Source of the DNA: Mycobacteriales bacterium
Lineage (GTDB): Bacteria > Actinomycetota > Actinomycetes > Mycobacteriales > QHCD01
DNA length: 64,000 nt
Assembly: GCA_040414495.1 (NCBI GenBank)
Contig: JBEDUI010000081.1
Coordinates: 528 to 64,527 of the forward strand
Reading direction: 5' to 3'
Shown here: positions 1 to 52,953 of the stretch, piece after piece
Numbering within the stretch: position 1 is the stretch's first letter
How the letters are laid out: each line of letters begins with the position of its first letter
Notes under the pieces: model-generated
What the model was told of the DNA's origin: nothing
Seen by the model: only the letters and a program-made list of their open reading frames with translations
The model's database searches: none
Translations under genes and position numbers: made by a program

Positions 1-1381
1 GCCGGACCGTCGCCAACACCGAGGCGGCCTGCTCGCCGCCCATCACCGAAATGCGAGCGTTCGGCCACATCCACAGAAAGCGCGGCGAATACGCCCGGCC
101 GCACATCGAGTAATTCCCGGCGCCGAACGAACCGCCGATCACCACGGTCAACTTCGGTACCCGGGCACACGCGACCGCAGTGACCATTTTCGCGCCGTGC
201 TTGGCGATTCCGCCGGCCTCGTAATCGCGGCCGACCATGAACCCGGTGATGTTCTGCAGGAACACCAACGGAATCTGACGCCGGTCGCACAGCTCGATGA
301 AATGCGCACCCTTCAACGCCGACTCGCTGAACAGAATGCCATTGTTAGCGACGATTCCCACCGGATGGCCGCAAATATGCGCGAACCCGGTCACCAGCGT
401 CGGACCGTACAACGCCTTGAACTCCGCGAATCGGCTGCCGTCCACGACGCGCGCGATTACCTCGCGCACGTCATAGGCGGTACGGATTTCCGCCGGCACC
501 ACGCCGTACAACTGGGTCGGATCCACCGCCGGTTCCGCGGTCGGTTCGACCGCCCACGGACGCGGAATCCGCGGCGGCAACGTAGCGACGATCGACCGCA
601 GGATCTGTAATGCGTGCGCGTCGTCCTCGGCCAAATGGTCGGTGACGCCGGAAGTTCGGGAATGCAACTCACCGCCACCCAATTCCTCGGCGGTGACGTT
701 TTCCCCGGTCGCGGCCTTAACCAATGGCGGGCCGCCGAGAAAGATCGTCCCCTCGTCCCGGACGATCACGGCCTCGTCGCTCATCGCCGGTACGTACGCG
801 CCGCCGGCGGTACAGGAACCCATGACCGCGGCCAGCTGCGGAATTCCCTGGGCCGACATCGTGGCCTGGTTGTAGAAGATCCGGCCGAAATGCTCGCGGT
901 CGGGAAACACCTCGTCCTGGCGGGGCAGGAACGCGCCGCCGGAATCGACCAGGTAAATGCACGGCAGGTTATTGTGCAGCGCTATTTCCTGGGCCCGCAG
1001 GTGCTTTTTCACCGTCATCGGGTAATACGTGCCGCCCTTGACCGTGGCGTCGTTGGCGACGATCACGACCTCGCGGCCACTGACCCGGCCGACCCCGGTG
1101 ATGAGCCCGGCCGCGGGCGCTTCGTCGTCGTACATTCCGGTCGCGGCCAGCGGGGAAAGCTCAAGAAACGGCGAGGCCGGATCGACCAGCGCGTCAACCC
1201 GTTCCCGGGGCAGCATCTTGCCTCGTTCGGCGTGCCGGGCGCGGGCGCGGTCGGTGCCGCCCCGGGCCGCGGTCGCGAGCCGTTCCCGCAACTCGTCGGC
1301 CAATTCCCGGTGGTATTTCTCGTTACGGGCGAATTGCTCGCTGTTGGGGTCGGCGGTCGTGCCCAACACCGGAGCGTCCAT
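1..1381 (-). CDS. acyl-CoA carboxylase carboxyltransferase (beta) subunit, methylcrotonyl-CoA carboxylase-beta-like; 3' end runs off the window
   Basis: Absent from the ORF track because there is no in-window stop. My reverse-complement translation from ATG (1381..1379) reads [35 protein letters not shown]...[33 protein letters not shown]...[17 protein letters not shown]...[27 protein letters not shown]...[16 protein letters not shown]. These are the two carboxyltransferase half-domains of AccD/MccB-type enzymes. Confidence 0.85.
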
Positions 1382-1521
1382 CCCTCGACTCACACCCTCC
1401 GAATGCCGGTGGAGCGACCCCGCTCCGTCGTTTCAGGTTAACGATCTTTGCCCGGCTGTGTCAGGGTGCGCGGCGGCGAAATACGGCCACCGCTGGTTTG
1501 GTCGGCTGAGCAGTCGCACCC

Positions 1522-2916
1522 CTAGAGCCCAGCGGTTTCCAACAGCCGCAGCCAGACCTCGCTGACGGTCGGGTACGACGGCACCGCGTGCCACAGCCGT
1601 TCCAGCGGTACCTCGCCGACGATCGCGATCGTCGCGGCGTGCAGCAACTCGCCCACCTCCGGGCCGACGAACGTCGCCCCGACCACCACCTGCCGCGACT
1701 CGTCGAGCACCAGCTGCGCCGTACCCCGGTACCCATCGGCCCGGACCGCGGCACCGGAGACGTCGCCGATCTTGTAGCTGACCACGCGGACCGCAAGCCC
1801 GGCCTCGCGGCCGGCGTACTCGGTCAAGCCGACCGACGCGACCTGCGGATCGGTGAAGATCACGCTCGGCGTGACGCCCTCGCGCACCGTGAACCGCTCG
1901 GCCGTCAACTCCTCACCCCGTACCCGGGCCACGATCACGTCCCCGCAGACCCGGGCCTCGTACTTGCCCATGTGCGTCAGCAACTCCCGGCCGGCCACAT
2001 CACCAACGGCGTAGAGCCAGCCCCCGGCGACATGCGTGTGCCGGTCGGCCCGCAGCCACGAGCCCGGTTTCAACCCGACCCGGTCCAGCCCGATGTCCGC
2101 GGTGTTGGGCCGCCGGCCGGTCGCCACCAACAGCGTGTCGACCTCGATCTCCTCGTCGCCGAGCATCACGGTGGTCGGGCCCTCGCCGGTCCGCCGTACC
2201 TCGCTGACGTTGGCGCCGGTATGCACGATCACCCCGCCTTCACGCAGCACCTCGACCATGCGCTCCCCAACGAACGGCTCGTGTGTGGCCAGCAGTCGGT
2301 CGGCCACCTCGAACAACGTGATCTTCGAGCCGAAGGCGTTCCACGCGGTGGCCATCTCGACACCGACCACGCCCCCGCCGATGATGCCCAGCCGGCGCGG
2401 CACCAGGTGCGTGCTCGTCGCCTCCCTACTCGTCCAGGGCCGGGCTTCACGCAGCCCGGGTATCGGCGGGATGCTGGCCGACGAACCGGTCGCCACGACG
2501 ACCGCGTGCCGGGCGCTGACGGTCTGCTCGATCCCGTCCGCGTCGACCACCGCCACGGTCCGCTCGCCGATCAGCCGGCCCCGACCCCGCAACACGTCGA
2601 TCCCCTTGCTGGTGGCCCAGTCGACCTGGCTCTTGTCCTCCCAGTGATGGGTGAATTCGTCGCGCCGGGACATCGTCGCCGGCACGCTGAGCGAACCGGT
2701 CACCGCCTCGGCCGCGCCGTGCACCGCCCGCGCCTGGGCCAGTACCTCGGGTCCGCGCAGTAACGCCTTGCTCGGCATGCAGGCCCAGTACGAACATTCG
2801 CCGCCGACCAGATTCGATTCGATCAGCGCCGCCGACAGCCCACCCCGTACGGCCCGGTCGGCGACGTTCTCACCGACCGCTCCCGCCCCGAGTACCACCA
2901 CGTCGTAGGTGTCCAT
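1522..2916 (-). CDS. class I pyridine nucleotide-disulfide oxidoreductase (dihydrolipoamide dehydrogenase / mercuric reductase-like family)
   Basis: ORF 1522..3141 trimmed to the internal ATG at 2916, which has GGAGG just upstream. MDTYDVVVLGAGAVGENVA gives the FAD GxGxxG fold, GGECSYWACMPSK the redox-active CxxxxC, and IIGGGVVGVE the second dinucleotide fold; a C-terminal dimerisation region follows. Confidence 0.85.
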   Translation of the reverse strand: MDTYDVVVLGAGAVGENVADRAVRGGLSAALIESNLVGGECSYWACMPSKALLRGPEVLAQARAVHGAAEAVTGSLSVPATMSRRDEFTHHWEDKSQVDWATSKGIDVLRGRGRLIGERTVAVVDADGIEQTVSARHAVVVATGSSASIPPIPGLREARPWTSREATSTHLVPRRLGIIGGGVVGVEMATAWNAFGSKITLFEVADRLLATHEPFVGERMVEVLREGGVIVHTGANVSEVRRTGEGPTTVMLGDEEIEVDTLLVATGRRPNTADIGLDRVGLKPGSWLRADRHTHVAGGWLYAVGDVAGRELLTHMGKYEARVCGDVIVARVRGEELTAERFTVREGVTPSVIFTDPQVASVGLTEYAGREAGLAVRVVSYKIGDVSGAAVRADGYRGTAQLVLDESRQVVVGATFVGPEVGELLHAATIAIVGEVPLERLWHAVPSYPTVSEVWLRLLETAGL

Positions 2917-2983
2917 GTCGCCTCCAGGTGGATCGACTCGAACAACAGCAAGCACGGCCGCGTCTACTAGTGTCGGTACGGTC

Positions 2984-3475
2984 ATGGTGACATCCGGAGA
3001 GTTCACGGCGGCGATGGCCGAGCTGGCCGGCAGCGTGGCGATCGTCTGCGTCCGGGACGAGGACGACGACGTCGGCATGACGAGTACGACGTTCTGTTCG
3101 CTGTCGCTCGAGCCGCCGCTGGTCGGGCTCGCGATCAACACGAAGTCCTATGTGGACGAACTGCTGGACCGGCGGCCCCGGTGGGCGGTGACCGTGCTCT
3201 CGGCCGGCCAGCGTGGAGTGGCGAGCCGGTTCGCCGCGGCGGGCCGGCCGAGCGCCCGGCTGTTGCTGGCCGATCTGCCGCATCACCGCGGGACGCTCTC
3301 CGGTGGGCTCATCGCCGAGGGCGGGGTGGCCGCATTGGAGTGCGAGACCGTGCAGCGGGTTCCGACTGGCGACCACACGCTGCTGGTGGCCCGGCCGTTG
3401 GCGGTCGACTACCTCGGCGGGGAGGCGGACCGGCCGTTGATTTATCGGCGCCGGCGCTACGGCGGGGTCGAATAG
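2984..3475 (+). CDS. flavin reductase-like FMN-binding domain protein
   Basis: ORF 2909..3475 trimmed to ATG 2984 (MVTSGEFTAAMAELAGSVAIVCVRDEDDDVGMTSTTFCSLSLEPPLVGLAI...), an HpaC/NADH:flavin reductase type pattern. Divergent from the disulfide reductase with 67 bp between the starts. Confidence 0.75.
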   Translation: MVTSGEFTAAMAELAGSVAIVCVRDEDDDVGMTSTTFCSLSLEPPLVGLAINTKSYVDELLDRRPRWAVTVLSAGQRGVASRFAAAGRPSARLLLADLPHHRGTLSGGLIAEGGVAALECETVQRVPTGDHTLLVARPLAVDYLGGEADRPLIYRRRRYGGVE

Positions 3476-3482
3476 AAACGGC

Positions 3483-3537
3483 GAAAGCGGAGACGTGCCG
3501 CCTCACCCCGTGGCCGAGGCGGACCGTCTCCGCTTTC
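3483..3537. terminator. bidirectional stem-loop between convergent genes
   Basis: GAAAGCGGAGACG (3483-3495) is the perfect complement of CGTCTCCGCTTTC (3525-3537). An inner CCGCCTC/GAGGCGG hairpin is also present. It lies between the flavin reductase stop and the sortase stop. Confidence 0.6.
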
Positions 3538-3552
3538 TGTGCCCTCTATGTG

Positions 3553-4215
3553 TTACGGACCAACTTTGGTCAGATGCGCCGACACCACGACGTTCTCCGG
3601 CGGCCGGCCGGGACGCAACGCGCCTCCGCAGCTGATGAGCCGGAGGGATGGGTACGTCGTGGGGGCGTAGATCTGCTCGGTCGGCAGCGTTCCGGGCCGG
3701 TAGCCACGGACGCTGTCGACCGAATACGTCGCCACGCGGCCGTCCTTGCGACGGACCGACATGGTCTGGTGCGGACCCAGTTTGGCGAGTCGGGCGAATA
3801 CGGCTGGCCTGCCGTCGCTCGCCCGGATGTAGCCGACAATGACGCTGGTGCCGGCCGAGCCAGGCGTCGCCGACCGGTCGTACCAACCTGCACGCGATGC
3901 CGGATGGGGCAGCTGCAGTTTGTGTTGGACGGTGCCGAGTCGGACCAACGAGCTGTCGACGCCCATAGTCGGGATGGCGATATGAACCGGATCCGAAGCC
4001 GGGAGCGCGGCCCCGCCGAGCGGGCGACTCGTCGTCGTTGACGATCCGTCCCGCCCGGCGTGTGGCGTCGGCCTCGCCCGGTTCGCGTCAGGGGATGGGT
4101 AACGCGAACCGAACAGGCCTGCGCCAAGCACGGCCGCCCCGGAGAGGATGAGGGCACCGACGGCCACCGACGCGATGATGCGTCGGCGACCGCCGTCGTG
4201 CCGTGCGCGAATCAC
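3553..4215 (-). CDS. sortase family protein, class F-like, with Tyr at the canonical catalytic His position
   Basis: N-terminal TM (IIASVAVGALILSGAAVLGAGLF), then IPTMGVDSSLVRLG...AGWY...GTSVIVGYIRASDGRPAVFARL...LRLISCGG...ENVVVSA, matching the class F sortase layout (xAGHVD....GPAVF / TCGG). The GTG start sits directly after the TAA stop of the upstream giant gene (TAAGTG). Confidence 0.8.
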   Translation of the reverse strand: MIRARHDGGRRRIIASVAVGALILSGAAVLGAGLFGSRYPSPDANRARPTPHAGRDGSSTTTSRPLGGAALPASDPVHIAIPTMGVDSSLVRLGTVQHKLQLPHPASRAGWYDRSATPGSAGTSVIVGYIRASDGRPAVFARLAKLGPHQTMSVRRKDGRVATYSVDSVRGYRPGTLPTEQIYAPTTYPSLRLISCGGALRPGRPPENVVVSAHLTKVGP

Positions 4216-7200
4216 TTAGAGCGGGAGTCCGCTCTCGTTCAGGCTGCTCAGCGGCGAACCGTTGGTGATCTGGCCAACCGGCAGACCACCCATGTCGGCG
4301 CCACCGAGGACGCTGGACAGACCGCCCAGACCCTGCAGCACGTTGGTCAGCCCAGTGATGTTCTGGACCGGCAGCTGGCTAACCGGAGAGGACACCGGAG
4401 CCGCAGCCGGGGCGACCGAAGCCGCACTCGGGCTGACGACCGGCAGCTGGCCGACGGGCAGCTGCCCGAGGGGCAGCTCCTCGAGCGGGTCACCGCCGAG
4501 GGCACCGGACAGACCGCCCAGACCCTGCAGCACGTTGGTCACACCGGTCAGGTTCTGGACCGGCAGGCCACCCAGCGGAGAAGACACCGGTGCGGCCACC
4601 GGGTGGATCTCCTGGGTCGAGGCCGCGGGCGCCGCGCCGCCACCGGCGACCGGCAGACCCTGCAGCGCGCTCGCCTGGCTCAGGACCGGCAGGCCCTGGC
4701 TCGCCAGACCGTTGCTGGCCACCCCGGCACCACCGAAGAGGCTGGTGAGCGGGTTGCTGGGCGCCTCACCCGGGTCGTTGAACGGGAAACCGTCCAGCGC
4801 GGCCGGGATGTGCATGACGTCCACCAGCGGGTTGCTCGGCACCGTGGTCGGGGTGTCGGTCAGCTCAGGGCTCTCGTTGAGCATGCCGTTGCCCTCGGCC
4901 AGCGCGATCAGGTTGCCGTCGATCGGCAGGTTGGTCGTGCCGGCGCCCTTGAAGTCCCGGGACGAACCCAGGTAGGACTCCGAGGGGTTGCCGTTCTCCG
5001 CGCCGTTGCCGGACGCGATCGCAACCACGTTGCCCACCACCGGCACGTTGATGTTGTCCGCGAGGTCAACATTCGAGCCGTACTTCTTCTGGGTGGGCGA
5101 GTCGAGCTGGGTCGGGTTGCCGTTCTGGTCGCCGTTGCCGTTGCTCAGCGCGGCGAAGCTCCCCAACACCGGGACGTTGACGTTGTCGGCGACGCCGAAG
5201 CTCTCGCCGTTGTTGTCCTTGGTGTCGACCTGCACCGGGTAACCGTTCTGCGACCCGTTGCCGTGGTCGACCGCCCAACCGGAGCCGTTCAGCGGGAGGT
5301 TCAGGTTGCGGAACAACCGGAACTCCGAGCCGTAACCGGAGCTGTCACCGTCCTGCGTGACGTGGCCGGGGTTTTCGTTGTTGAGCTGGGTCACGCCACC
5401 GTTCTGCGACCCGTTGCCGGAGTCGCCGGCCTGGCCCGCACCGGAGACCGGCAGGTTGACGTTGTCGCCGATGCCGATCCGGGAACCCGGGTTGCTGGCG
5501 GTGTCACCCTGGCTGACCAACTGGTTCTGCGTGCCGTTGCCGACATCCGCACCCTGGCCGACGCCGACCGCGGGGATGTTGATGTTACGGAACAGCAGCA
5601 GGCTCGAGCCCCACCCGGAGGTCACCGGGTCGGTGGTCGAACCGATACCAGAGGTGTTGTTCTGGTCGACCTTGCCGTTCTGCGACCCGTTGCCGGAGTC
5701 GCCGCCCTGACCCGCACCGTTCAGCGGGATGTTGACGTTGTCGCCAACGCTGAGGCTCGAGCCGGGGGTACGGCCGGTGTCGTTCTGGTTGACGACCTGG
5801 TTCTGCGCGCCGTTGCCGACGAGGCCGCCCTGACCCACACCCACGACCGGGATGTCGGCGTTACGCAGCAACTCGATCTGCGAGCCGAACCCACGGGCGG
5901 AGCCGTCCTTGGACAGCGTCCCGTTGTCGGTCCAGTTGCGCTGATGTACGTCGCCGTTCTGCGCGCCGTTGCCGGACGCGCCGCCCTGACCCGCACCGTT
6001 GATCGGGAAGATCGCGTTGTCCGCGACACCGATCTGCGAGCCGGGGTTGTTCCCGCTGTCGAACTGGGTGCGGTTCCCGTTCTGCGCGCCGTTACCGACG
6101 TCGCCGCCCTGACCCACGCCGATGGCGCCGCTGTCCAGGTTGCGGAACAGCTTGACCTCGGAGCCCCAGCCGTAGACGTCGTCAGCGACGCCGCCCTTGC
6201 CGGTCGTGGTCTGGGTGGTGTTGCCGTTCTGCGACCCGTTGCCGGTGACCCCGCCCTGCCCGACACCGACGGCCTGGATGATGCCGTTGTCGGCGATCGT
6301 GATCGACGAGCCGGGGCTGTTGTGGCTGTCGGTCTGGGTCGCGTTGCCGTTCTGCGACCCGTTGCCGGAGACCCCGCCCTGGCCCGCGCCGTTCAGCGGG
6401 GCGTAGACGTTGCGGAACACGTTGACGCTCTCGCCCCAACCGCCCACGCCGTCCTTGTTGACCCAGCCGTGGCCCTGGGTGTTGGTCTGGGTCTTGTCGC
6501 CGTTCTGCGCGCCGTTGCCGACGTCGCCGCCCTGGCCGACCCCGACCACCGGAATCGCGATGTTGTCCGCCGCGCTGATGGCCGACCCCTGGGTGTGGCC
6601 GTCATCGCTCTGGCTGACGTTGCCGTTCTGCGACCCGTTGCCGGAGACCCCGCCCTGACCCGCACCGTTCAACGGGATGTCGAGGTTACGGAACAGGTTG
6701 ACCGCCGAGCCCCAGCCCTGGATCTTGTCCGGGGTGTTGGAGCCCTCGCCGTTGGTGTTGCTCTGGTCGATGTTGCCGTTCTGCGCACCGTTGGCGACGT
6801 CACCGGCCTGGCCGGCGCCCGCGCCCTGCACGACCGCGTTGTCGGCGATCGAGACCGCCGAGCCCGGCGAACCGGCCTCGTCGACCTGCGACACGTCACC
6901 GTTCTGCGCCGCGTTGCCGACCACGCCAGCCTGCCCGGCACCGTCAATCGGCACCCGGACGTTGCGGAACAGGTTCACGGCCGAGCCGAACCCGGTGATG
7001 TTGTCGTAGCTCTGCGGCGGGTCGTTCGGCCCGAAGTTGGCCTGCGACACGTCGCCGTTCTGCGCGCCGTTGCCGACGACGCCCGCCTGACCCGCGCCGG
7101 TGGCCGGGATGTTCAGGTTGTCCGCCAGGCTGGCGAACGCCGGGTTGCCGCTGGGCTGATCCAGCTGCGAGATGTCGCCGTTCTGCGACCCGTTACCGAT

Positions 7201-8943
7201 GTCGCCGGCCTGACCCGCGCCGTTGAGCGGGGTGTTGGCGTTGCCGAGCAGGTTCAGACCCGAGCTGGTCGTGTTGTCCTGCAGCGCCTGGTCGACGTCG
7301 CCGTTCTGGGCGGCGTTACCGGTGTCGAATGCCTGGCCGGACGCGTTGACCGGCAGGTTCAGGTCGTCGACCAGCCGGAAGGCCGATCCCTCGCCACTGT
7401 CGCCGGTCCCTGCCATCGGGCTGGCGGCCGCGTTCGTCGTGCCGCGGTACGGCTCCGCCCCGTCGGTGTTGTCGGAGTACTGGGTGACGTCACCGTTCTG
7501 GGTGTTGTTGCCGGTGTCGACGGCCATGCCGTGCGCGTTGATCGGCACGTTGACGATGCCGGCGATGCCGTGCCCGTCGCCGAGCGTCTGGCTGACGGCG
7601 CCGTTCTGCGAGTTGTTGCCGCTGTCCACGGTCAAGACGTTGGCGTCAACCGGCATGTCGACGCTGCCCAGGATCCGCGACCCGTTGCCCTTGCCGACGT
7701 ACTCCTGGTCGATCGTCCCGTTCTGGGAGTTACGGCCGGAGTCGATGGCGGCCGCGGTCAGGTGCAGCGGAGCCTCGATGTCGCCGAGGGCGCCACCGGA
7801 CTTGGTGCTGTGCTGACCGGCCGGCGTACGCGGCTTGACGCCCACGTCGAGCAGCTCGATCTCGTGCCCGCTGGCCGTCTCGATGTTCGCGTGCGCGGTA
7901 GCCGCACTCAGTACGGTCTGCACCGGGTTGCTCGCGTCGGGCTTGAGCCCGCCGTCCGGTCCGATGCCCAGGTCGGGCGCCACCGGCAGGCCGGTGTCCT
8001 GCAGCGGCAGGCTCTTGCCCGCTGCCGACAGCTGGCCGGTCGGCTTCGTGGCCCCCGGCTGCAGCGATTCGGTGACCGTGCTGACGCCCTTGTTGAGCCC
8101 CTGCTCGGTCAGGTTCTGTGCAACCGGCAGGTTCCCGAGCATCGCCTTGGCCGCGTTGCTCGGCCCGGACGTCGCGTTGGCCAAGGTGTTGGCCGGCTTC
8201 GACTCGGGCGTGTTCTTCGGCGCGGCCGAAGCGGCTGGCAGATGACCCAGTACGGATCCGGCCGCCGGCAGTTGGCCCAGCGACTGCAGCGCGCTGGTCG
8301 GCGCCTGGACCAGGTTGGTCGGCGCCTGCAGCAGCGAGGTCGCCGAGTCCAGTCCAGGCAGACCACCGAGCAGCCCGCCGGACTGCTGCGGCCGGCTAAC
8401 CGGGTGCACAGTCTCGCGGGTGGCGTGCGTAGTGGTGTGCGCCGGAGCCGCGTGCGACGTGGCCACCTTGGGGGTGGTGGCCACGTGCGGGGCGGTGTGC
8501 GTCGCCGGCTGCGGAGCCGGAGCCGAGTGGGTGACCGGCGCCTGGGGCAGCGCGTGCTCCACGGTGCTGGTCGCACGACGGGCGGCCTTCACGACCGCCT
8601 TGGCCGGAGCCCCTGCCCGCTTCGTAGCAGCCCGCTTCGTAGCTGCCGGCTTGGCTGCCGACCTGGTCGGTGTCGCCTGGTGCGCCGGCGCTGCCGCACG
8701 GGGGGTCAGCGGCGACTGCGGCGAGAGGACATCGACGGTGTTGCTGACAATCTGCTTCGTGCTGTGCACCGCGTCCTGCACGGTGCCGTGCGTTGCCGAC
8801 CCTGACAATCCCGGCAACGCAAGTCTGGTCACGTCACTGGACGCCTTGCCCGGCGTGGAAGCGTGTGCCGCTCCCGCGCCGACCGCGACGAAACCCGCGG
8901 TGATGACGGCTGTTTCCAGTGATCTCCGGACCCAAGACTGCAT
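4216..8943 (-). CDS. 1575-aa secreted repeat protein (Asn/Gly/Gln-rich, solenoid-like), function unknown
   Basis: Signal peptide MQSWVRRSLETAVITAGFVAVGAGAAHA|ST, then an Ala/Pro/Thr/His-rich linker. This is followed by 22 repeats of N-[LIV]-x-[IV]-P-[LIV]-x-G-x-G-Q-[GA]-G-x-x-G-N-G-[SA]-Q-N-G and a duplicated C-terminal LPVQN[LI]TG[VL]TNVLQGLGGLS module. The antisense 1581-aa ORF (4060..8805) is a high-GC shadow. Confidence 0.85.
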   Translation of the reverse strand: MQSWVRRSLETAVITAGFVAVGAGAAHASTPGKASSDVTRLALPGLSGSATHGTVQDAVHSTKQIVSNTVDVLSPQSPLTPRAAAPAHQATPTRSAAKPAATKRAATKRAGAPAKAVVKAARRATSTVEHALPQAPVTHSAPAPQPATHTAPHVATTPKVATSHAAPAHTTTHATRETVHPVSRPQQSGGLLGGLPGLDSATSLLQAPTNLVQAPTSALQSLGQLPAAGSVLGHLPAASAAPKNTPESKPANTLANATSGPSNAAKAMLGNLPVAQNLTEQGLNKGVSTVTESLQPGATKPTGQLSAAGKSLPLQDTGLPVAPDLGIGPDGGLKPDASNPVQTVLSAATAHANIETASGHEIELLDVGVKPRTPAGQHSTKSGGALGDIEAPLHLTAAAIDSGRNSQNGTIDQEYVGKGNGSRILGSVDMPVDANVLTVDSGNNSQNGAVSQTLGDGHGIAGIVNVPINAHGMAVDTGNNTQNGDVTQYSDNTDGAEPYRGTTNAAASPMAGTGDSGEGSAFRLVDDLNLPVNASGQAFDTGNAAQNGDVDQALQDNTTSSGLNLLGNANTPLNGAGQAGDIGNGSQNGDISQLDQPSGNPAFASLADNLNIPATGAGQAGVVGNGAQNGDVSQANFGPNDPPQSYDNITGFGSAVNLFRNVRVPIDGAGQAGVVGNAAQNGDVSQVDEAGSPGSAVSIADNAVVQGAGAGQAGDVANGAQNGNIDQSNTNGEGSNTPDKIQGWGSAVNLFRNLDIPLNGAGQGGVSGNGSQNGNVSQSDDGHTQGSAISAADNIAIPVVGVGQGGDVGNGAQNGDKTQTNTQGHGWVNKDGVGGWGESVNVFRNVYAPLNGAGQGGVSGNGSQNGNATQTDSHNSPGSSITIADNGIIQAVGVGQGGVTGNGSQNGNTTQTTTGKGGVADDVYGWGSEVKLFRNLDSGAIGVGQGGDVGNGAQNGNRTQFDSGNNPGSQIGVADNAIFPINGAGQGGASGNGAQNGDVHQRNWTDNGTLSKDGSARGFGSQIELLRNADIPVVGVGQGGLVGNGAQNQVVNQNDTGRTPGSSLSVGDNVNIPLNGAGQGGDSGNGSQNGKVDQNNTSGIGSTTDPVTSGWGSSLLLFRNINIPAVGVGQGADVGNGTQNQLVSQGDTASNPGSRIGIGDNVNLPVSGAGQAGDSGNGSQNGGVTQLNNENPGHVTQDGDSSGYGSEFRLFRNLNLPLNGSGWAVDHGNGSQNGYPVQVDTKDNNGESFGVADNVNVPVLGSFAALSNGNGDQNGNPTQLDSPTQKKYGSNVDLADNINVPVVGNVVAIASGNGAENGNPSESYLGSSRDFKGAGTTNLPIDGNLIALAEGNGMLNESPELTDTPTTVPSNPLVDVMHIPAALDGFPFNDPGEAPSNPLTSLFGGAGVASNGLASQGLPVLSQASALQGLPVAGGGAAPAASTQEIHPVAAPVSSPLGGLPVQNLTGVTNVLQGLGGLSGALGGDPLEELPLGQLPVGQLPVVSPSAASVAPAAAPVSSPVSQLPVQNITGLTNVLQGLGGLSSVLGGADMGGLPVGQITNGSPLSSLNESGLPL
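4876..7791 (-). repeat. intragenic tandem repeat array (22 units; ~92-aa super-repeat made of alternating 41-aa and ~51-aa units)
   Basis: Counting residues, the xQNG/xQNQ/AENG cores fall at 406, 445, 481, 545, 586, 627, 679, 720, 771, 812, 863, 904, 953, 994, 1046, 1087, 1138, 1179, 1231, 1272, 1315 and ~1352. From residue 545 to 1272 the spacings are 41,41,52,41,51,41,51,41,49,41,52,41,51,41,52,41 (alternating after the first two). The long units carry G[WFY]GSxVxLFRN. Confidence 0.9.
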
Positions 8944-9034
8944 GGGAGATCCCTCTCTCTCGGATTCTGGCGGTGGTTACGTACGCCAGACAGGGGGGCG
9001 TACGGGACCCTCGTTGTGATCGCGAGAGAGCGGA

Positions 9035-10303
9035 TTAGTCAGGGGAAGTAGAGGGCCGCTTCGAGACCGAGCGGGCCATGCTGGCATCGGTCGGGTCGAC
9101 CGTTCCCAGCGTGCGTAGCGGGGCGTCCGCGTCGGCGTCCAGCGCCGCCGGGGCGCTGCTGCCGACCGAGCCGGAAGAGTTCGCGTTGGCACCCGCGCCG
9201 CTGCTCACACCGCCGGACGGAGCGGGCGGAGCCGCCGGCGCGATCGGGGTGAGCGGCTGCGGGTGCGGCAGGCCATGGTCGGCGTGGCTGATCCGCACGC
9301 TGATGGCGAGCGGGACGCTCAACTCGTCGGCCTGACGGGTCGGTCCCGCCGCGGTCGACGTCGCCGGGACGACGTGGCGGCCGGTCTCCCGAACGACCCG
9401 GTGCGCGGCAGCCACCGTCCGCTGGTGAGCAGCGGGGGCGTGCCGGACGACCGTCGCGGCAACCGACCGGACCACCGGCGTGGTGCCGACGACCGGAGTC
9501 GTTCCCAAATCCACCGGGCCGAGCTGCTCGCCGGCCGGGACCGAAAGGCCGGGCAGCGAAACGTCCGGAGCGGTGTGCTGGACCGTCTGGTTCACGGTCG
9601 AGGTGACCCGGTGCACGGTCGAGGTGACCGGCGCGGTCACGGTCGACAGGTCGGGTGCCTTACCGGAGATGGTCTGCGTAACCGACTGAACCGGCTCGCT
9701 GACCTGCTTGGCTACATGAGTGGTCTGGTCGGTCAGCGACGTGGTGGCGTGCCGGGCAGCGTCGGTGATCGGAGTGACCACCTTCTGCGTGACCGGCTTG
9801 GCCGCATCCGTGACCGACCTACTCGCGTCACCGAGCCGATGCTCGAGTTGATCACGGACCTGGCTACCGATGTCGGTCGAGTCGAGCGTCTTTCCCAGAT
9901 CAGTCGGATCGTCGGAGTGCCGGCTCGGAGCCGGAGCCGACGGAAGGCTGGAGTGGGAAGAGGCCGCGTCTTCGGTCGCGCTCGAAGCGCTGTGTTGGGC
10001 GCGAACCGTGACCGACGCCGTGTGCCGGGAATGCACGACCTGCGAGACCGCGTGGTGAACCGAGTCCGAGAGACCGGACACCGGCTGGGCCTGGTGCGTG
10101 GTCTCGTCGACGCTGTGCAGTATCGAGGTCACCGGCGTCGCGTCCTGCGGCGTCGCCGCGTGCGCCATGCCGCCAATCGCGGTGGCGCCGATCCAACCGG
10201 CGACCGCAAAGCCGCCGGTCACGAGGAACCGGCGCGCGATCCGGACCGCGGTGGAGCGCTCGGACGCCTGGTGGCGCCTCGCCCTCTCCGGTCCGAACGA
10301 CAT
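9035..10303 (-). CDS. exported Thr/Val/Ser/His-rich protein, function unknown (first gene of the sortase-linked operon)
   Basis: N-terminal basic region plus a hydrophobic segment ending AHA|ATP (RFLVTGGFAVAGWIGATAIGGMAHAATPQD). The body is low-complexity with V-T-x-x-V type repeats (PVTQKVVTPITD..., VTAPVTSTVHRVTSTVNQTV). Same strand as the giant gene and 91 bp upstream of it. Confidence 0.65.
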   Translation of the reverse strand: MSFGPERARRHQASERSTAVRIARRFLVTGGFAVAGWIGATAIGGMAHAATPQDATPVTSILHSVDETTHQAQPVSGLSDSVHHAVSQVVHSRHTASVTVRAQHSASSATEDAASSHSSLPSAPAPSRHSDDPTDLGKTLDSTDIGSQVRDQLEHRLGDASRSVTDAAKPVTQKVVTPITDAARHATTSLTDQTTHVAKQVSEPVQSVTQTISGKAPDLSTVTAPVTSTVHRVTSTVNQTVQHTAPDVSLPGLSVPAGEQLGPVDLGTTPVVGTTPVVRSVAATVVRHAPAAHQRTVAAAHRVVRETGRHVVPATSTAAGPTRQADELSVPLAISVRISHADHGLPHPQPLTPIAPAAPPAPSGGVSSGAGANANSSGSVGSSAPAALDADADAPLRTLGTVDPTDASMARSVSKRPSTSPD

Positions 10304-10724
10304 GCGGCTCCTCTGACGATGTGAAGCGGATCAGCTTCGCTCTGTCCGATTACTGCTACGCAACGTAGCGATCTTGCCGATGGTCTGCAAGTGCTGATTC
10401 CCAGCGTGTTGCGCGTAGGTCTAGGTGCGTTCGGCAGTTAATTTGTACGGCCATTAGGCGGCATTGATCCGCGCCAAACAGCGCTCAATTTCCGTGCTTG
10501 ATAGTCAAGCGGCTGCCCATCGTGACAGCTCATCGGGCCGCCCGGTCCGGCTGTTGTGCCGACCGCGACGACGATTCCGACGCCCCCGAACGGCGTCGTC
10601 TGTTCATCCGCGAACGCGGCGCCGACGTTACATCGCCGGTTAAATTGCCGGCCGGACTAATCGAGCCGCGATCTGCGCCCCAGATCGACCTGCCGACTCG
10701 ACCGTTCTGTCCTCGGTGGACTGT

Positions 10725-11489
10725 CTACTTAGGAGCGAGCCGAACGGCTCCGTCGAGCCGGATCGTCTCACCGTTCAACATAGGGTTTTCCACAATCGCG
10801 GCGACGAGCGCGGCGTACTCCTCGGGATGACCGAGCCGGCTGGGATGCGGGACCTGAGCCGCGAGCGAGGCCTGCAGGTCGCCTGGCAGACCGGCCACCA
10901 TCGGGGTTTCGAATATGCCGGGCGCGATCGTCATCACCCGGATCTGCCGGGCCGCCAATTCACGGGCGACCGCGAGGGTCAGCGACACGACGCCGCCCTT
11001 GGAGGCCGCATAGGCCGGCTGACCGATCTGCCCGTCGTACGCCGCGATCGACGCCGTGCAGATCAATACGCCCCGTTCCTCGCCGACCGGTTCGAGTGCC
11101 GCGATCCGTTCGGCCGCCAGCCGAAGGACGTTGAACGTCCCGACCAGGTTGATGTCGATGGCCCGCTGGAATTCAGACAGCGGCAGCGGACCGTGCCGGC
11201 CGAGCATCCGGCCGACGGTCGCGACGCCGGCGCAGTTGACCACCAGCCGCAGCGCGCCGAGCCGCTCGGCCGTATCGAGCGCGGCAGCGACCTGGTCCTC
11301 GTCGCGGACATCGGTCGGCCTGAACGCGACCGCGTCACCCAACTCGGCCGCCACCTCCGCTCCGGCCGAGCCGGGAAGGTCGGCGATGACGACCTTCGCG
11401 CCAGACGAGACCAGTCGCCGGACCGTGGCCTGCCCGAGGCCCGAGGCGCCGCCGGTGACGAGGGCGGCGACCGTGTCGTCAAGAAGCAT
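10725..11489 (-). CDS. short-chain dehydrogenase/reductase, 3-hydroxyacyl-CoA dehydrogenase type-2-like
   Basis: TGGASGLG cofactor motif and YAASKGG catalytic Y-x-x-x-K. Overall similarity to HSD10/FadB2-type SDRs ([24 protein letters not shown]). Confidence 0.85.
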
Positions 11490-13241: not shown

Positions 13242-15662
13242 GTGCCAGCGAAAATCCCATCCCCGCAATCCCTGCCCGACAAATGGGCGCCGTACTGGGA
13301 ACAGCAACGGACGTACGAATTCGACCGTACCGCCGCTCCGGACCGCGTCTTCAGCATCGATTCGCCGCCGCTCACCGTGAGCGGCACCCTCCACATCGGA
13401 CACTTGTACTCGTACACCCACACCGACGTGATCGCGCGTTTCCAAAGAATGCGCGGAAAAGCCGTCTGCTACCCGGTCGGCTTCGACGACAACGGGCTGC
13501 CGACCGAACGGCGGGTGCAGAACTATTACGGCGTGCGGGTCGACCCGACGATTTCCGAATCCACCAATGGCGTCGTTGGACGGGCCCGGTTCCGGGAATT
13601 GTGTGCCCGGCTCACGGCACGCGACGAGCAGATTTACGAACGGGCCTGGCGCCGGCTCGGATTGTCGGTCGACTGGTCACTGTCCTACCGCACCATGGAC
13701 GAACGCTCGCAGGTCATTTCGCAGCGGGCCTTTCTGCGCAACCTCGCCCGCGGGGAGGCGTACCGGTCCGAGGCGCCGACGCTCTGGGACGTCACCTTCC
13801 ACACCGCCGTGGCGCAGGCCGAATCGGTCGACCGGGAAATCCCCGGCGCCTTTCTCAGCCTGCGGTTCGTCGGCCCGGACTGCGATATCGCGGTCGAGAC
13901 GACCCGACCCGAATTGCTGCCGGCCTGCGTCGCTCTGGTCGCGCACCCCGACGATGCCCGCTACCAACGGCTTTTCGGCCGCACCGCCCGTACACCGCTC
14001 TTTGATGTCGAGGTGCCGATTCACCCGCACCGCCAGGCCGACCCGGACAAGGGCAGCGGAATCGCGATGGTGTGTACGTTCGGCGATCCGACCGATGTCG
14101 TCTGGTGGCGCGATCTCGCACTCGACACCCGGGCCGTGCTCGGATTCGACGGCCGATTCCGCACCGAGCCACCGTCTGGTGTGGACAGTGACCGATACGC
14201 GATCCTGGCGGGGAAATCGATCGAGGAAGCCCGGGCGGACATCGTGCAACAGCTCCGGGATTCGGGTACGTTGCTCGGACCGCCCCGGCCGGTGACGCAC
14301 TCCGTGCCGTTCTACGAGAAGGGCGAGCGCCCACTGGAGATCGTGCCGAGCCGGCAGTGGTATATCCGCAACGGTGGCCGCGACGAGGAACTGCGCGAGC
14401 AATTGTTACGCCGCGGCGCACAATTGTGTTGGCATCCAGAATGGATGCGTAGCCGCTTCAACGGCTGGGTCGAGGGGCTCCGCGGCGATTGGCTGATCAG
14501 CCGGCAGCGGTTCTGGGGTGTGCCGTTTCCACTGTGGTATCGGCTCGATGACACCGGTCAGCCCGGTGAGGTCCTCATTCCGGACGAGACCGCATTGCCG
14601 CTCGACCCGACTCAGGCCTGCCCACCCGGATTCCGGCCTGACCAACGCGATCAACCCGGTGGTTTCACCGCCGAACGCGACATCATGGATACCTGGGCCA
14701 CGTCCTCGCTGACCCCGCTGATCGGCACCGCCGAATTGACCGGCCCGCCGCGACAATTCGACCTGCACCCGCAGGCGCACGAAATCATCCGTACCTGGCT
14801 TTTCACCACGTTGTTGCGCGCACATGTCGAACGCGACGAACTGCCCTGGCGGAATGCCGCCATTTCCGGCTGGGTCGTGGATTCGCAGCACGAGAAGATC
14901 GGCAAATCCGCCGGCAACGCCGAATCACCCGAGGCGTTGCTGGACCAATTCGGTCCCGATGCGATTCGGTATTGGGCCGCGCGGGGCCGGCTCGGTTACG
15001 ACCTGACCTTCGACCTGAACCAGGTGAAGGTCGGACGGCGCCTCGCGACCAAACTCTTGAACGCGAGCCGTTTCGTGCTCTCGTTCGAGGCGACCGAGGA
15101 AATCGTCGACCGGCCGCTGGATCGGGCCCTGCTGGCCGGACTGTCCACAGTGGTGAGTGATGCGACCGCAGCGCTGGAGCTGTACGACCACGCACGGGCG
15201 CTGGAGCGTATCGAACGATTCTTCTGGCAGTTCTGCGACGACTACATCGAGTTGGTGAAGGAACGGGCATACGCCGGCTGCCCGTCCGCGCGGACGACGC
15301 TGCGGTCGGCATTGGCGCAGCTGCAACGGCTCCTGGCGCCGTACCTGCCGTTCGTGACCGAAGAGTCCTGGTCCTGGTGGCAGTCCGGTTCGGTGCACCT
15401 GACGCAATGGCCAGAACCGGGCGACGCGGGCGAGGACGCGACGCTGCACGCAGCCAGCACCGTGCTGACCGGCATCCGGCAACAGAAGTCGGCGGCCGGC
15501 CTGTCCATGCGCACACCGGTCGGGAGCATCCGGGTCGCCGGTAGCACCGACCTGGTCGCGGCCGCGGCCCGCGCCGCGACCGAACTCCAGCAGGCCGCGC
15601 ACGCCGACCAGATCGAGTTCACCGAAGCCGAGGGGCCACTCGTGGTCAGCGTGAACCCGTAA
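13242..15662 (+). CDS. valS: valine--tRNA ligase (archaeal/actinobacterial short type)
   Basis: Class I aaRS with HIGH motif ([11 protein letters not shown]) and a KMSKS-equivalent KIGKSAGN. The editing-domain signature [22 protein letters not shown]...[17 protein letters not shown] is typical of ValRS. Start moved from TTG 13176 to GTG 13242 (GAAAGG upstream); the start is uncertain. Confidence 0.8.
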
Positions 15663-15741
15663 CGCTCGGCGACCGCCAAGTCACCGATCAGCCCGTCCCA
15701 CGGGCAAAATCGAATTCTGGTCCGCCTCGTCTAGTAGGGTC

Positions 15742-16398
15742 ATGCCGATGAATGACAGGCTCGTATGGATCGATTGCGAGATGACCGGCCTCGATCTCGC
15801 CCACGACGCGTTGATCGAGGTGGCCGTCCTCGTCACCGACTCCAATCTCACGGTGCTGGGCAAAGGCATCGACATCGTCATCTCCGCCCCGGCCGAGAAG
15901 CTGGAATCGATGAACGAGGTCGTATCGGCGATGCACGCCGCCTCGGGCTTGACCGAGGCGGTCCGCGCGTCGACGGTCACGATGCAGGACGCCGAGCGGC
16001 AGGTCCTCGACTACATCCGGGAGTACGTACCGGAGCCGCGGACCGCGCCGCTGGCCGGCAACTCCATCGCCACCGACCGTGGGTTCCTCGCCCGCGACAT
16101 GCCGGCGCTGGACAACCATCTGCACTACCGGATGGTCGACGTGTCCTCGATCAAGGAGCTGAGCCGGCGCTGGTATCCGCGCGTCTACTACGCGCAGCCG
16201 GAGAAGGGCATGCAGCACCGGGCGCTGGCGGATATCGAGGAGAGCATCCAGGAGTTGCGGTATTACCGCAGCGCGATCTTCGTACCGGAGCCCGGGCCGA
16301 GTACCGATGAGGCGCGGGCGATCGCGGCCCGGATCATGAACGGCGACGCCGCAAAGGCCGATTCACCGCTGCACGAGGCGGGCCAGGCGGAGGCGTAA
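15742..16398 (+). CDS. orn: oligoribonuclease
   Basis: DEDDh exonuclease motifs: [44 protein letters not shown]. The orn/tRNA-His adjacency is common in actinobacteria. Confidence 0.92.
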
Positions 16399-16453
16399 GC
16401 CGGAGTTCCAGACGTCCGCTATGATCGTGCGGAGCCGCCGATGTGCGGCCCGC

Positions 16454-16530
16454 GGTGGGTGTAGCTCAGTTGGTAGAGCACCTGGTTGTGGTCCAGGGAG
16501 TCGTGGGTTCAAGTCCCATCACTCACCCCA
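16454..16530 (+). tRNA. tRNA-His (anticodon GTG), with encoded G-1 and 3' CCA
   Basis: Manual cloverleaf: G-1; acceptor GTGGGTG/CACTCAC; D arm GCTC-AGTTGGTA-GAGC; anticodon arm CCTGG-TTGTGGT-CCAGG; T arm GTGGG-TTCAAGT-CCCAT; discriminator C and CCA. Confidence 0.95.
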
Positions 16531-16537
16531 AGGGAAA

Positions 16538-16566
16538 GGGAGCAGCTTCGGCTGCTCCCTTTTTTC
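16538..16566 (+). terminator. rho-independent terminator after tRNA-His
   Basis: GGGAGCAGC-TTCG-GCTGCTCCC followed by TTTTTTCTT. Confidence 0.85.
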
Positions 16567-16664
16567 TTGCCCATCTCGTACGTGAATTGCGTCTCGCCGA
16601 TCCGGCGTCACTTCTGCGGCCGATCGCGCGATGAACCGGACAGCAACGTACTGAGGAGGACAAG

Positions 16665-17831
16665 ATTCCCAGATACTGGCTGTCGGTCGCGGTCGCGGCC
16701 GCATTGTCCGCGGCACTCGCCACACCAGCGACTGCCGACTCGCCAAACTGGACGCTGGACCTGCACGGGACCGACGCCAACGTCGCAGTCGATCACGGCA
16801 CGCTGCGCCTGGCCGACCCGAAGGCGCCGGCGTTGGCCAGCCCGACCGCGCTCGGTTCGCTCATCACCGCGCCGCACCGGCTCGACCGGCTCGCCACCGG
16901 GCTGGTCGCCACCCTCAACGCCGATATCCCGGCCGGCGCGGCGGTCCGGATCGACGTACGCGGCGTTGGGGGCACCGGCCGCTGGGGCGAATGGACCCCG
17001 GCCGGGGCCGCGCTGCCCGGACCGGCCCGAGTCGTTCAGGCCCGGGTCACCCTCATCGCCGCTCCGGACGGCGCCAGCCCGCGGGTGCGCGCGGTATCGC
17101 TGCGACCAATGGATTCGGGCGTCACGCCGCGGACCTCGGGCACCGCCTCGACGTACCGGGTATTCGCCACCCGCGAGGGTCTGGTCGGCGGCACCACGGC
17201 CAACGGCCACGTCATCGTCTCCCGCGATCATTTCGTCGCGCTGCCCTCCGGACGTGGACTGTCCCCCAAGGACGGCGGCAGCTACACAGTCCGGGTCTGC
17301 GCGACCAGCGGGCGCTGCGAATGGGCGCCAGTGTGGGACGTCGGGCCGTGGAATACACACGATGACTACTGGAATCCAGCCGCGATCCGCGAGGACTGGA
17401 AGGACGTAACCCAGGGCGAGCCGGAATCGCAGGCGGCGTACTCCAATGGCTACAACGGCGGTAAGGACGGCTTCGGCCGTACCGTCTCCAATCCGGCCGG
17501 GATCGACCTGGCCGACGGCACGTTCTGGGACGGACTGCAACTGACCGACAATGCCTGGGTCAACGTGACCTATTTGTGGACTGGGGCCGCTGGCGTGACC
17601 GGCACCATCGACACCGCGTTGAATGTCCGCAGTGGACCACACGGCACCGCTACCGCGGTCGGCTTGGCCGATGAGGATGCCCAGGTGCCGATCGTCTGCC
17701 AAACGACAGGCGACTCGGTCTCCGGCAGCGTAAAGAAAACGAATCTCTGGGATGAATTGGCGACCGGTTATTACGTTTCGGACGCCTATGTGGACACTGG
17801 GTCAACAAAGCAGGTCGCTCCGAATTGCTGA
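16665..17831 (+). CDS. secreted protein with RlpA-like double-psi beta-barrel region and C-terminal SH3b domain (putative cell-wall-binding/lytic protein)
   Basis: The ORF track starts it at TTG 16704, but the in-frame upstream codons encode the missing signal peptide (I-PRYWLSVAVAAALSAALATPATA|DS) behind a GAGGAGGA Shine-Dalgarno. The core YRVFATREGLVGGTTANGHVI...HFVALPS...WAPVWDVGPWN is DPBB-like. The C-terminal GTIDTALNVRSGPHGTATAVG...NLWDEL...GYYVSDAYVD is SH3b-like. The start codon is uncertain. Confidence 0.7.
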   Translation: MPRYWLSVAVAAALSAALATPATADSPNWTLDLHGTDANVAVDHGTLRLADPKAPALASPTALGSLITAPHRLDRLATGLVATLNADIPAGAAVRIDVRGVGGTGRWGEWTPAGAALPGPARVVQARVTLIAAPDGASPRVRAVSLRPMDSGVTPRTSGTASTYRVFATREGLVGGTTANGHVIVSRDHFVALPSGRGLSPKDGGSYTVRVCATSGRCEWAPVWDVGPWNTHDDYWNPAAIREDWKDVTQGEPESQAAYSNGYNGGKDGFGRTVSNPAGIDLADGTFWDGLQLTDNAWVNVTYLWTGAAGVTGTIDTALNVRSGPHGTATAVGLADEDAQVPIVCQTTGDSVSGSVKKTNLWDELATGYYVSDAYVDTGSTKQVAPNC

Positions 17832-17866
17832 GAATCGCCCCCGGAATTAGCTTCCGGGGGCGATTC
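17832..17866. terminator. bidirectional terminator hairpin between convergent genes
   Basis: GAATCGCCCCCGGAA-TTAGC-TTCCGGGGGCGATTC, a perfect 15-bp stem. Confidence 0.75.
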
Positions 17867-17882
17867 GGTATCTATCGAAAAC

Positions 17883-52820: not shown

Positions 52821-52953
52821 GGAGCGCACTGACTCGTGACAACCGTCGCCACAGCACCTGCGTCTGGACGTGTGGTGTGTTCGATCCAGTTTCTGGCTGG
52901 TGCATGCCTGGACGGTTGCGCATACTGGGTTGGTCACCGATGGGGGGAGAGCG

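Follow-up and report, generated by a model that had tools for sequence, protein, structure and literature searches.

The 64,000-nucleotide stretch of contig JBEDUI010000081.1 from a Mycobacteriales bacterium (termed the window, meaning the whole of the DNA analyzed) contains a three-gene locus in which the gene for a sortase-like protein starts exactly where the gene for a giant repeat protein stops, raising the question of what the three products do together and whether the sortase-like protein acts on the giant. The genes lie on the minus strand with gene 1 (9035-10303, 422 amino acids, ATG start with GAGGAG upstream) coding for an exported or membrane-anchored protein termed the SPD-tail protein, gene 2 (4216-8943, 1575 amino acids, ATG start) for the predicted secreted giant repeat protein, and gene 3 (3553-4215, 220 amino acids, GTG start) for a membrane-anchored sortase-fold protein of a clade termed Tyr-for-His. 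The answer favored here, to which we give an even chance, is that the locus is a lineage-restricted cell-surface module, and confidence in any specific role of the sortase-like protein within that module is lower. Judged from their sequences, the giant repeat and the SPD-tail represent two orphan families.

The in-frame third-position guanine plus cytosine (GC) content is 0.85 for gene 1, 0.90 for gene 2, and 0.79 for gene 3, and the three open reading frames (ORFs) therefore fit real coding sequence in a 68% GC genome. The ORF list and the third-position GC agree with the coordinates given for three same-strand ORFs in the initial annotation, which had also described a lower-GC region upstream, a TAAGTG stop/start junction at 4213-4218, and signal peptides on the first two products, all of which are borne out. 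The GC content is 0.61 in the 421 bp of 10304-10724 compared with ~0.70 in the three genes and 0.677 in the whole window. Read on the minus strand, the stop codon of the giant gene in TAAGTG abuts the GTG start of gene 3, and the N termini of the gene 1 and gene 2 products each have a basic stretch followed by a Gly/Ala-rich hydrophobic stretch and then AHA. The product of gene 3 recorded by NCBI and Logan (P0003) has 137 amino acids starting from Met84 and omits 83 N-terminal residues, including the membrane anchor. These residues are conserved in homologues, making the GTG at 4215 the more likely start and the start of P0003 probably mis-called. An exact look-up of the 220-amino acid sequence gave no match, as the product is recorded in the 137-amino acid form of P0003.

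The trio had been proposed to be a conserved unit, and it does recur with a junction of 0-4 nucleotides between genes 2 and 3 in the window and in three other lineages of uncultured soil actinomycetes, with a looser arrangement in a fifth, more divergent lineage. A metagenome-assembled genome (MAG) also named Mycobacteriales bacterium (L005/L006/L010) has genes for 440, 1597, and 240 amino acids with the junction TAAATG, and upstream of them lie a HAD hydrolase gene and a short-chain dehydrogenase gene, as in the window. Two soil-metagenome contigs (L008/L009) have genes for 379, 1585, and 220 amino acids with the junction TAAATAGATG, and a further pair of contigs (L096/L097) has the end of the giant gene (...NAGGLSL), TAAGTG, the sortase gene, and a flavin reductase gene. 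The sortases of the lineages sharing the stop/start junction are 61-68% identical, and for the giant proteins the identity of L005 and L008 with the window is 66% by tblastn and 69-72% in a MAFFT alignment. The giant is 39-44% identical to the window protein in L017, Fodinicola, and P0049; in L017 and L019 the partner gene is followed by the giant (40% identity) and the Tyr-sortase (42%) with two small ORFs between the giant and the sortase. The first of these ORFs in L017 (5840-6055) codes for a 71-amino acid protein with VPSGT, a C-terminal transmembrane segment, and RRRKSGKA, and overlaps the giant stop, whereas the second (6585-6875) codes for a 96-amino acid protein with a giant-like signal peptide and overlaps the sortase start. 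Similar ORFs are present in L018, L019, and L020. The partner and giant genes occur as a pair in Fodinicola acaciae, Fodinicola feengrottensis, and related contigs (L001-L004 and L011). Contigs L002-L004 end just past the giant gene and contig L095 ends after the partner and giant, and in F. acaciae a methyltransferase-like gene lies directly after the giant. In F. feengrottensis the giant homologue (L011, 8001-13956) is broken into several ORFs in different frames, which means either that the gene is a pseudogene or that the repeats were misassembled.

The description of gene 3 as sortase-F-like holds in part. The Pfam sortase domain PF04203 is matched over residues 79-215 with 65.2 bits (gathering cut-off 26.6, E=6e-18), a transmembrane segment lies at residues 11-37, the active-site cysteine is present as Cys196 (codon 3628-3630, minus strand), and class F is the best class by far, scoring 134.4 bits with the NCBIfam model NF033748 compared with 21 bits for class E. 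The part that does not hold is full agreement with class F, as the score lies below the cut-off of 166 and Tyr129 (codon 3829-3831, minus strand) is in place of the catalytic histidine. The window protein reads VIVG-Y129-I where canonical relatives read GH. The alignment shows GY in the window protein, P0004, P0005, P0006, and P0011, GF in P0007, and GH in P0012-P0016, with no alternative conserved histidine among the aligned clade members. The cysteine motif LRLIS-C196-GG is invariant in the Tyr clade. By tblastn over the loci, the 16 nearest sequences (10 of them new from a metagenome scan) have GY with the cysteine, and 71 more distant ones have GH with the cysteine. In a neighbor-joining tree the 12 unique Tyr sequences group together as a clade to the exclusion of every histidine member. 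An alignment of six clade members at 43-68% identity has 56 columns without variation, among them positions in the anchor region and P-x-LRLI-x-CGG, indicating purifying selection on a maintained protein rather than decay. Arg-156 and Arg-192 are invariant; the position that we take to be equivalent to SrtA Arg-197 is Asn208, placed by eye against the SrtA sequence, and is likewise an asparagine in the aligned canonical class F relatives. A sequence search for solved sortase structures gave no match. All sortases have been described with a His-Cys-Arg triad (PMC8225981), and the tyrosine in place of the histidine thus marks the clade as chemically divergent or non-catalytic.

The giant protein is composed of a signal peptide (residues 1-28, MQSWVRRSLETAVITAGFVAVGAGAAHA, 8860-8943, minus strand) that is nearly invariant in all giant homologues, a Pro/Ala/Thr-rich linker extending to about residue 377, a Gly/Asn/Gln-rich region of 22 units of ~40 amino acids (residues 378-1365, 4849-7812, minus strand), and a 210-residue tail. 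The tail forms a Gly/Leu/Pro/Ser-rich C-terminal domain (4219-4848, minus strand) with an internal duplication and the end ...GGLPVGQITNGSPLSSLNESGLPL. The protein has no cysteine at all and no lysine or arginine in the last 210 residues, terminating in ...NESGLPL. The motif LP[LV]G or GLPL is found within the last ~25 residues in the window, L005, L008, L017, P0001, P0002, L096, and L024 and is missing from P0049. The C terminus shows no LPXTG-type sorting signal, no hydrophobic segment, and no basic tail, and a six-frame scan of the whole 64-kb window found no LPXTG or LAXTG followed by a hydrophobic segment and basic tail in any ORF.

Class F sortases of most actinobacteria were said in the initial annotation to sit alone; several of the sortase relatives retrieved here come after large surface proteins. 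In L023 the Tyr-sortase (3919-4596) follows a protein of more than 1278 amino acids with CARDB/DUF11 immunoglobulin (Ig)-like repeats (86-3922) with a 4-nucleotide overlap, and in L015 the Tyr-sortase (929-1573) overlaps by 4 nucleotides a protein (3-932) ending in ...VPSGAPNTGGG, a transmembrane segment, and RRRGASRP. Both of these partners have a hydrophobic segment and a basic RRR tail, whereas the window giant has neither. The ends of the two partners have a shared-looking TVP[SL]GA motif before the hydrophobic segment, and this motif together with the hydrophobic segment and RRR might constitute a sorting signal of the Tyr clade distinct from LPXTG.

These observations bear on the more conventional explanation of the locus, in which a canonical class F sortase recognizes a sorting signal in the giant or the 422-residue protein and links it covalently to peptidoglycan. 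This is consistent with the sortase domain, the membrane anchor, and the conserved cysteine in a TLxTC-like motif, with the conserved translational coupling of the sortase to the giant gene, with the coupling of other clade members to proteins having a C-terminal hydrophobic segment and basic tail, and with the long chaplins of Streptomyces being sortase substrates (PMC8225981). However, the catalytic histidine is replaced by tyrosine or phenylalanine across the clade in place of the described triad, the class F score is under the cut-off, neither large protein nor any ORF in the window has an LPXTG/LAXTG sorting tail, and in Fodinicola no sortase lies beside the partner and giant, making a canonical pair improbable. 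For these reasons the proposal in its usual sense, a class F sortase acting on an adjacent substrate, is not upheld.

The loss of the histidine could also be taken to mean that the sortase-like gene is a decaying or unrelated passenger whose adjacency is inherited synteny in one clade. Fodinicola manages without an adjacent sortase, class F knock-outs in Actinoplanes missouriensis have no phenotype (PMC13251363), and a sister group with GY has lost the cysteine too (P0018, P0032, P0035, and P0045). Against a passenger gene stand the stop/start junction, kept at 61-68% sortase identity with the linkage persisting at ~42%, the 56 invariant columns that take in the cysteine motif and N-terminal anchor, and the independent clade members coupled to other surface proteins; a passenger is therefore considered about as improbable as the canonical pair. 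A second class-F-like group with GY and without the active-site cysteine takes in these four proteins, P0018, P0032, P0035, and P0045 (L014, 8001-8561), as well as P0017 (L013, 8001-8603), with the motifs LRLISLRD, LRLITWRG, and LRLISTGG in hosts including Actinomadura and Actinoallomurus, and one member has been named class F sortase by NCBI. These proteins are likely pseudo-enzymes. In L013 (1-8603, an actinobacterial MAG), three unannotated proteins of 1042, 1099, and 493 amino acids are followed by three consecutive sortase-domain genes coding for 396, 212, and 200 amino acids, a further instance in which class-F-like sortases cluster with large proteins.

The initial annotation recognized no family for the two large proteins, and none was found. 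Comparison of the 422- and 1575-residue proteins with Pfam and NCBIfam at E<=1 gave no family, with noise-level matches for the 422-residue protein only. The repeat unit of the giant has the consensus G-x-G-S-x5-[RD]-N-x-N-x-P-x-x-G-x-G-Q-G-G-x-x-G-N-G-x-Q-N-G-x-V-x-Q, and in the central repeats units with LFRN (or FRN) alternate with units with ADN to give double units of ~92 amino acids. Tandem Repeats Finder shows almost no similarity between the units at the DNA level, indicating that the repeats are old and diverged. A profile of the 22 units searched without word filters against 1.84 billion representative proteins matched 12 proteins (two long and ten short or partial), and a word-seeded search with the giant protein matched two. 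The small number of profile matches taken with the absence of a Pfam or NCBIfam family means that the repeat is a true orphan. A genome scan with the giant alignment, using patterns from the signal peptide, found only the known MAG, F. feengrottensis, and a chaplin-like gene of Marinactinospora.

The SPD-tail protein has a hydrophobic segment with RR at its N terminus, a middle rich in Thr and Val, and a Pro-rich region, and Kyte-Doolittle analysis gives a single hydrophobic segment at residues 26-44. Residues 22-37 (10194-10241, minus strand) include IARRFLVTGG, a sequence similar to twin-arginine (Tat) export motifs; the RR is retained in L005, L008, L017, and L012 and is not found in the Fodinicola homologues. 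The 25 C-terminal residues, ...LGTVDPTDASMARxVSxRPSTSPD-stop (9038-9112, minus strand; ...KRPSTSPD in the window protein), are nearly identical in the window, L005, and L008, and a terminal P-S-x-S-P-D is invariant in six aligned homologues including those of Fodinicola. Variants of the tail are PPVSPD in L017, TAVSPD in L095, and PSFSPD in Marinactinospora. The homologues range from 233 to 440 amino acids and have in common an Arg-rich, hydrophobic N terminus with an invariant tryptophan, a variable low-complexity middle, and the fixed C terminus. A profile search with the family matched five proteins, and there is no Pfam family.

An SPD-tail homologue sits upstream of each giant homologue examined. 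A link between this family and chaplin genes, absent from the initial annotation, is seen in two cultured genera. In F. acaciae (L001) a second SPD-tail gene (15252-16175), present besides that of the giant's partner, lies directly upstream of the gene for a 680-amino acid protein (16293-18335) that contains an LPVTG sorting signal as well as ten PF03777 chaplin domains. In Marinactinospora rubrisoli (L012) an SPD-tail gene (5562-6587) lies directly upstream of two chaplin-domain genes (6834-7700 and 8001-9629). The chaplin assignments served as positive controls against PF03777 with E-values of 1.9e-67 for the L001 protein and 7.4e-14 for the L012 protein. The signal peptides of these chaplin proteins, MNIWLRRSLQGLILTGGFVVMGAAAAHA in L001 and MRKWVRTSAETAILTAGFVALG in L012, are almost the same as that of the giant. 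This suggests that the SPD-tail proteins are an undescribed chaplin-associated protein family, and the upstream SPD-tail gene and chaplin-like signal peptide place the giant in the genomic position, and with the export signal, of a chaplin-type protein. F. acaciae is reported to form abundant aerial hyphae (PMC7232338).

The signal peptide and the SPD-tail gene directly upstream in both cases would also be expected if the giant were itself a chaplin that had diverged very far, its repeats descending from chaplin repeats and its role being that of a hydrophobic, functional-amyloid sheath protein. A short motif, D-V-P-[VL]-N-x-S-G-[NQ]-A-I, is common to the giant and the chaplin units, and in F. 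acaciae the protein with ten chaplin domains is coded 2 kb away. However, the giant has no PF03777 match at E<=1, hhalign against nine F. acaciae chaplin units gives a probability of 0.9%, and a hidden Markov model (HMM) of the chaplin unit scores at most 5.7 bits on seven giant homologues with filters off. The giant also lacks the chaplin cysteine pair, is hydrophilic, and has a 40-amino acid rather than chaplin-sized unit. Chaplin homology is rejected, since only a local motif of 5-13 residues could be aligned by hhalign and the chaplin-unit HMM, and we regard descent from chaplins as quite unlikely. As the homology tests failed and the compositions differ, the relationship with chaplins is at most one of functional analogy.

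Four known systems share features with the locus. To our knowledge the only characterized class F sortase is Cutibacterium acnes SrtF (NF033748). Gene 3 is like the class F enzymes in its sortase domain, N-terminal anchor, and (L/I)-x-(T/S)-C-G-G following LRL, and differs in having tyrosine (phenylalanine once) for histidine, a score under the cut-off, and a coupled protein without an LPXTG-type signal. The long chaplins ChpA-C of Streptomyces, proteins of the aerial-hypha sheath, with their class E sortases are similar to the locus in that, in a filamentous actinomycete, a secreted multi-repeat β-protein is tied to a sortase-family protein, and the Fodinicola and Marinactinospora chaplin-domain proteins share with the giant a near-identical signal peptide and the SPD-tail neighbor. 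The giant differs from chaplins in the absence of chaplin-domain homology, the cysteine pair, hydrophobicity, and LAXTG, and the sortase of the locus is of another class and has no histidine. The curli protein CsgA and FapC resemble the giant in their short, imperfect Gly/Asn/Gln-rich repeats with conserved glutamine, asparagine, and glycine and in their operon accessory proteins; however, the CsgA unit is ~22 amino acids compared with 40 in the giant, whose host is Gram-positive and has no outer-membrane secretion channel, and the structural match of the giant to FapC is not significant. Homology with curli was considered and rejected, there being no PF07012 match and an hhalign probability of 0.7% against CsgA R1-R5. 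Gram-positive sortase-dependent pilus and surface-protein clusters have, like the locus, a surface-protein gene followed directly by its own sortase-family gene, and differ in that the locus is without detected pilin or Ig-like domains, a sorting signal, or the sortase histidine. The Tyr-sortase locus L023 with its CARDB/DUF11 repeats, transmembrane segment, and basic tail is nearer to these clusters than that of the window. A sortase gene beside a surface-protein gene is thus a familiar arrangement, and what is new here is that two defining rules are broken and two orphan families are present.

Structure prediction was applied to the giant. AlphaFold2 models of the 988-amino acid repeat region (three-sequence alignment) and of a 275-amino acid segment are all-β with low confidence, the mean predicted local distance difference test (pLDDT) values being 34 and 54, respectively. 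The alignment for the 275-amino acid model was composed of in-register segments of the window protein, P0001, P0002, and P0049 with short fragments. Foldseek comparison of this low-confidence model with the PDB gave no significant match, the best having E=0.06 and a TM-score of 0.13 with all TM-scores <=0.17; the non-significant matches are mostly to β-helix proteins, an ice-binding protein and the amyloid FapC among them, and offer a hint only. Regular Gly/Asn/Gln/Thr-rich β-repeats are typical of adhesins and of ice-binding and ice-nucleating solenoids. The giant might accordingly have no part in a structural sheath and instead be secreted as an adhesin, a matrix component, or a binder of ice or minerals, and the SPD-tail protein might be a membrane protein unrelated to it, a reading for which the repeat composition, the nature of the non-significant Foldseek matches, and the origin of the source samples from soils could all be cited. 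The absence of a significant fold match and the strict pairing with the SPD-tail gene, which is paired with chaplins as well and so points to a shared assembly context, make this improbable.

The upstream DNA of the window, L005, and L008 has diverged except for identical islands. One of these is an extracytoplasmic function (ECF) sigma-type promoter-like motif, TGTAAC-N17-GGATGA (10604-10632, minus strand), situated ~300 nucleotides upstream of the first ATG; TGTAAC-N17-[AG]GATGA is found in all three sequences with the bases on either side diverging. The pattern GTAAC-N16-18-GATGA occurs twice in the window compared with 0.1 expected. The Streptomyces BldN promoter motif is CGTAAC-N16-CGTTGA (PMC2375139) and that of ShbA is CGTAAC-N16-CGATGA (PMC12019637), and the chaplin and rodlin genes are driven by BldN (PMC4255298). 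Each hexamer of the conserved motif shares five of six bases with its ShbA counterpart, the spacer being longer by one base, and we infer from this resemblance to the BldN and ShbA promoters that the motif may act as a promoter. The second site in the window, GTAAC-N16-GATGA at 52984-53010 (minus strand), is antisense in the plus-strand ORF 52870-54441 with no family-bearing gene downstream and probably occurs by chance. That ORF has a weak kinase-like match and sits after a MurJ gene.

Directly downstream of the ECF-like motif is the hairpin GACGCC-GTTCGG-GGCGTC (10580-10597, minus strand). Its stem is retained in all three loci; there is a single compensatory change, from G:C to A:U, and a single wobble pair. 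The covariation term from RNAalifold for the three sequences is positive (unfavorable). With three sequences to go by, the hairpin may form a stem-loop at the 5' end of the mRNA or may be the terminator of the short-chain dehydrogenase gene that lies upstream. Closer to gene 1 is a candidate housekeeping-type promoter, TTGCAG-N17-TACGTT (10362-10390, minus strand), both hexamers of which are kept in the window, L005, and L008 with a spacer of 17-18 nucleotides when read by eye. A strict consensus scan called no sigma-70 sites, the candidate at 10362-10390 included, and found terminator-like sites fewer than the chance expectation. The perfect inverted repeat GCTACG-TTG-CGTAGC (GCTACGTTGCGTAGC, 10355-10369, minus strand) overlaps the candidate -10 element, and its core CTACGTTGCGTAG(C) is identical in all three loci ~55-70 nucleotides upstream of the ATG, suggesting a likely operator. 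A search of Rfam 15 found nothing at gathering score in the window except a tRNA and nothing at E<=1 in 10200-10800. On the other side of the locus, a flavin reductase gene (2984-3475, plus strand) is convergent with the sortase gene; the same gene follows the trio in L005/L006/L010, L008/L009, and L096/L097 and keeps its position in L007, which is probably plain synteny.

Taken as a cell-surface module, the locus probably builds or decorates a proteinaceous fiber or sheath on the hyphal surface. The giant protein would be secreted and fold into an elongated β-rich rod, probably solenoid-like, occupying a structural niche like that of chaplins although homology with them is not detectable. The SPD-tail protein may be the assembly or organizing partner of such β-proteins, and it holds the same positional relation to chaplin genes. 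The Tyr-sortase would not perform classical LPXTG transpeptidation on the giant; it may act through its cysteine on the LP-rich C-terminal domain, in a cleavage or an attachment of a non-canonical kind, or, alternatively, serve as a non-catalytic membrane tether or chaperone. Expression would probably be driven from the ECF-type promoter and/or the housekeeping-type promoter overlapped by the palindromic operator. A wider proposal, which we consider unlikely, is that SPD-tail proteins are general partners of secreted β-sheath proteins, both chaplins and the giant, in an unrecognized surface-assembly pathway of mycelial actinomycetes and that the histidine-less Cys/Tyr sortases are a lineage with new chemistry or non-catalytic tethering whose substrates have no classical sorting signal.

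Several points weigh against the fiber or sheath module. No confident structure or significant fold match was obtained for the giant, so that the idea of a β-solenoid or fiber is drawn from the sequence pattern only. The giant is hydrophilic, being rich in Gly, Asn, Asp, Ser, and Gln, and has no cysteine, unlike the hydrophobic chaplins, and profile comparisons of its repeats with those of chaplins and curli were null. No sortase is present in the 6.6-10 kb downstream of the pair in F. acaciae (L001) and F. feengrottensis (L011), indicating that the sortase-like protein is not essential to the basic function of the giant and that the invariant core is the partner and giant with the sortase as an add-on of one branch. 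For the signal peptides the basis is inspection by eye plus a Kyte-Doolittle hydropathy scan and nothing more, and the islands of identity and the promoter and operator assignments come from an alignment of three sequences (the window, L005, and L008).

What class F sortases do in filamentous actinomycetes was called unknown in a 2026 study, and a quadruple class F deletion in A. missouriensis gave no phenotype (PMC13251363). The locus provides a sortase-F-like protein with a fixed genetic partner, which allows a specific test of its role. One coherent branch of the family has replaced the supposedly universal catalytic histidine and kept the cysteine under selection, pointing to an altered chemistry or a pseudo-enzyme role. 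The link between SPD-tail and chaplin genes in the cultured Fodinicola and Marinactinospora offers an experimental entry to the hyphal surface layers of actinomycetes other than Streptomyces.

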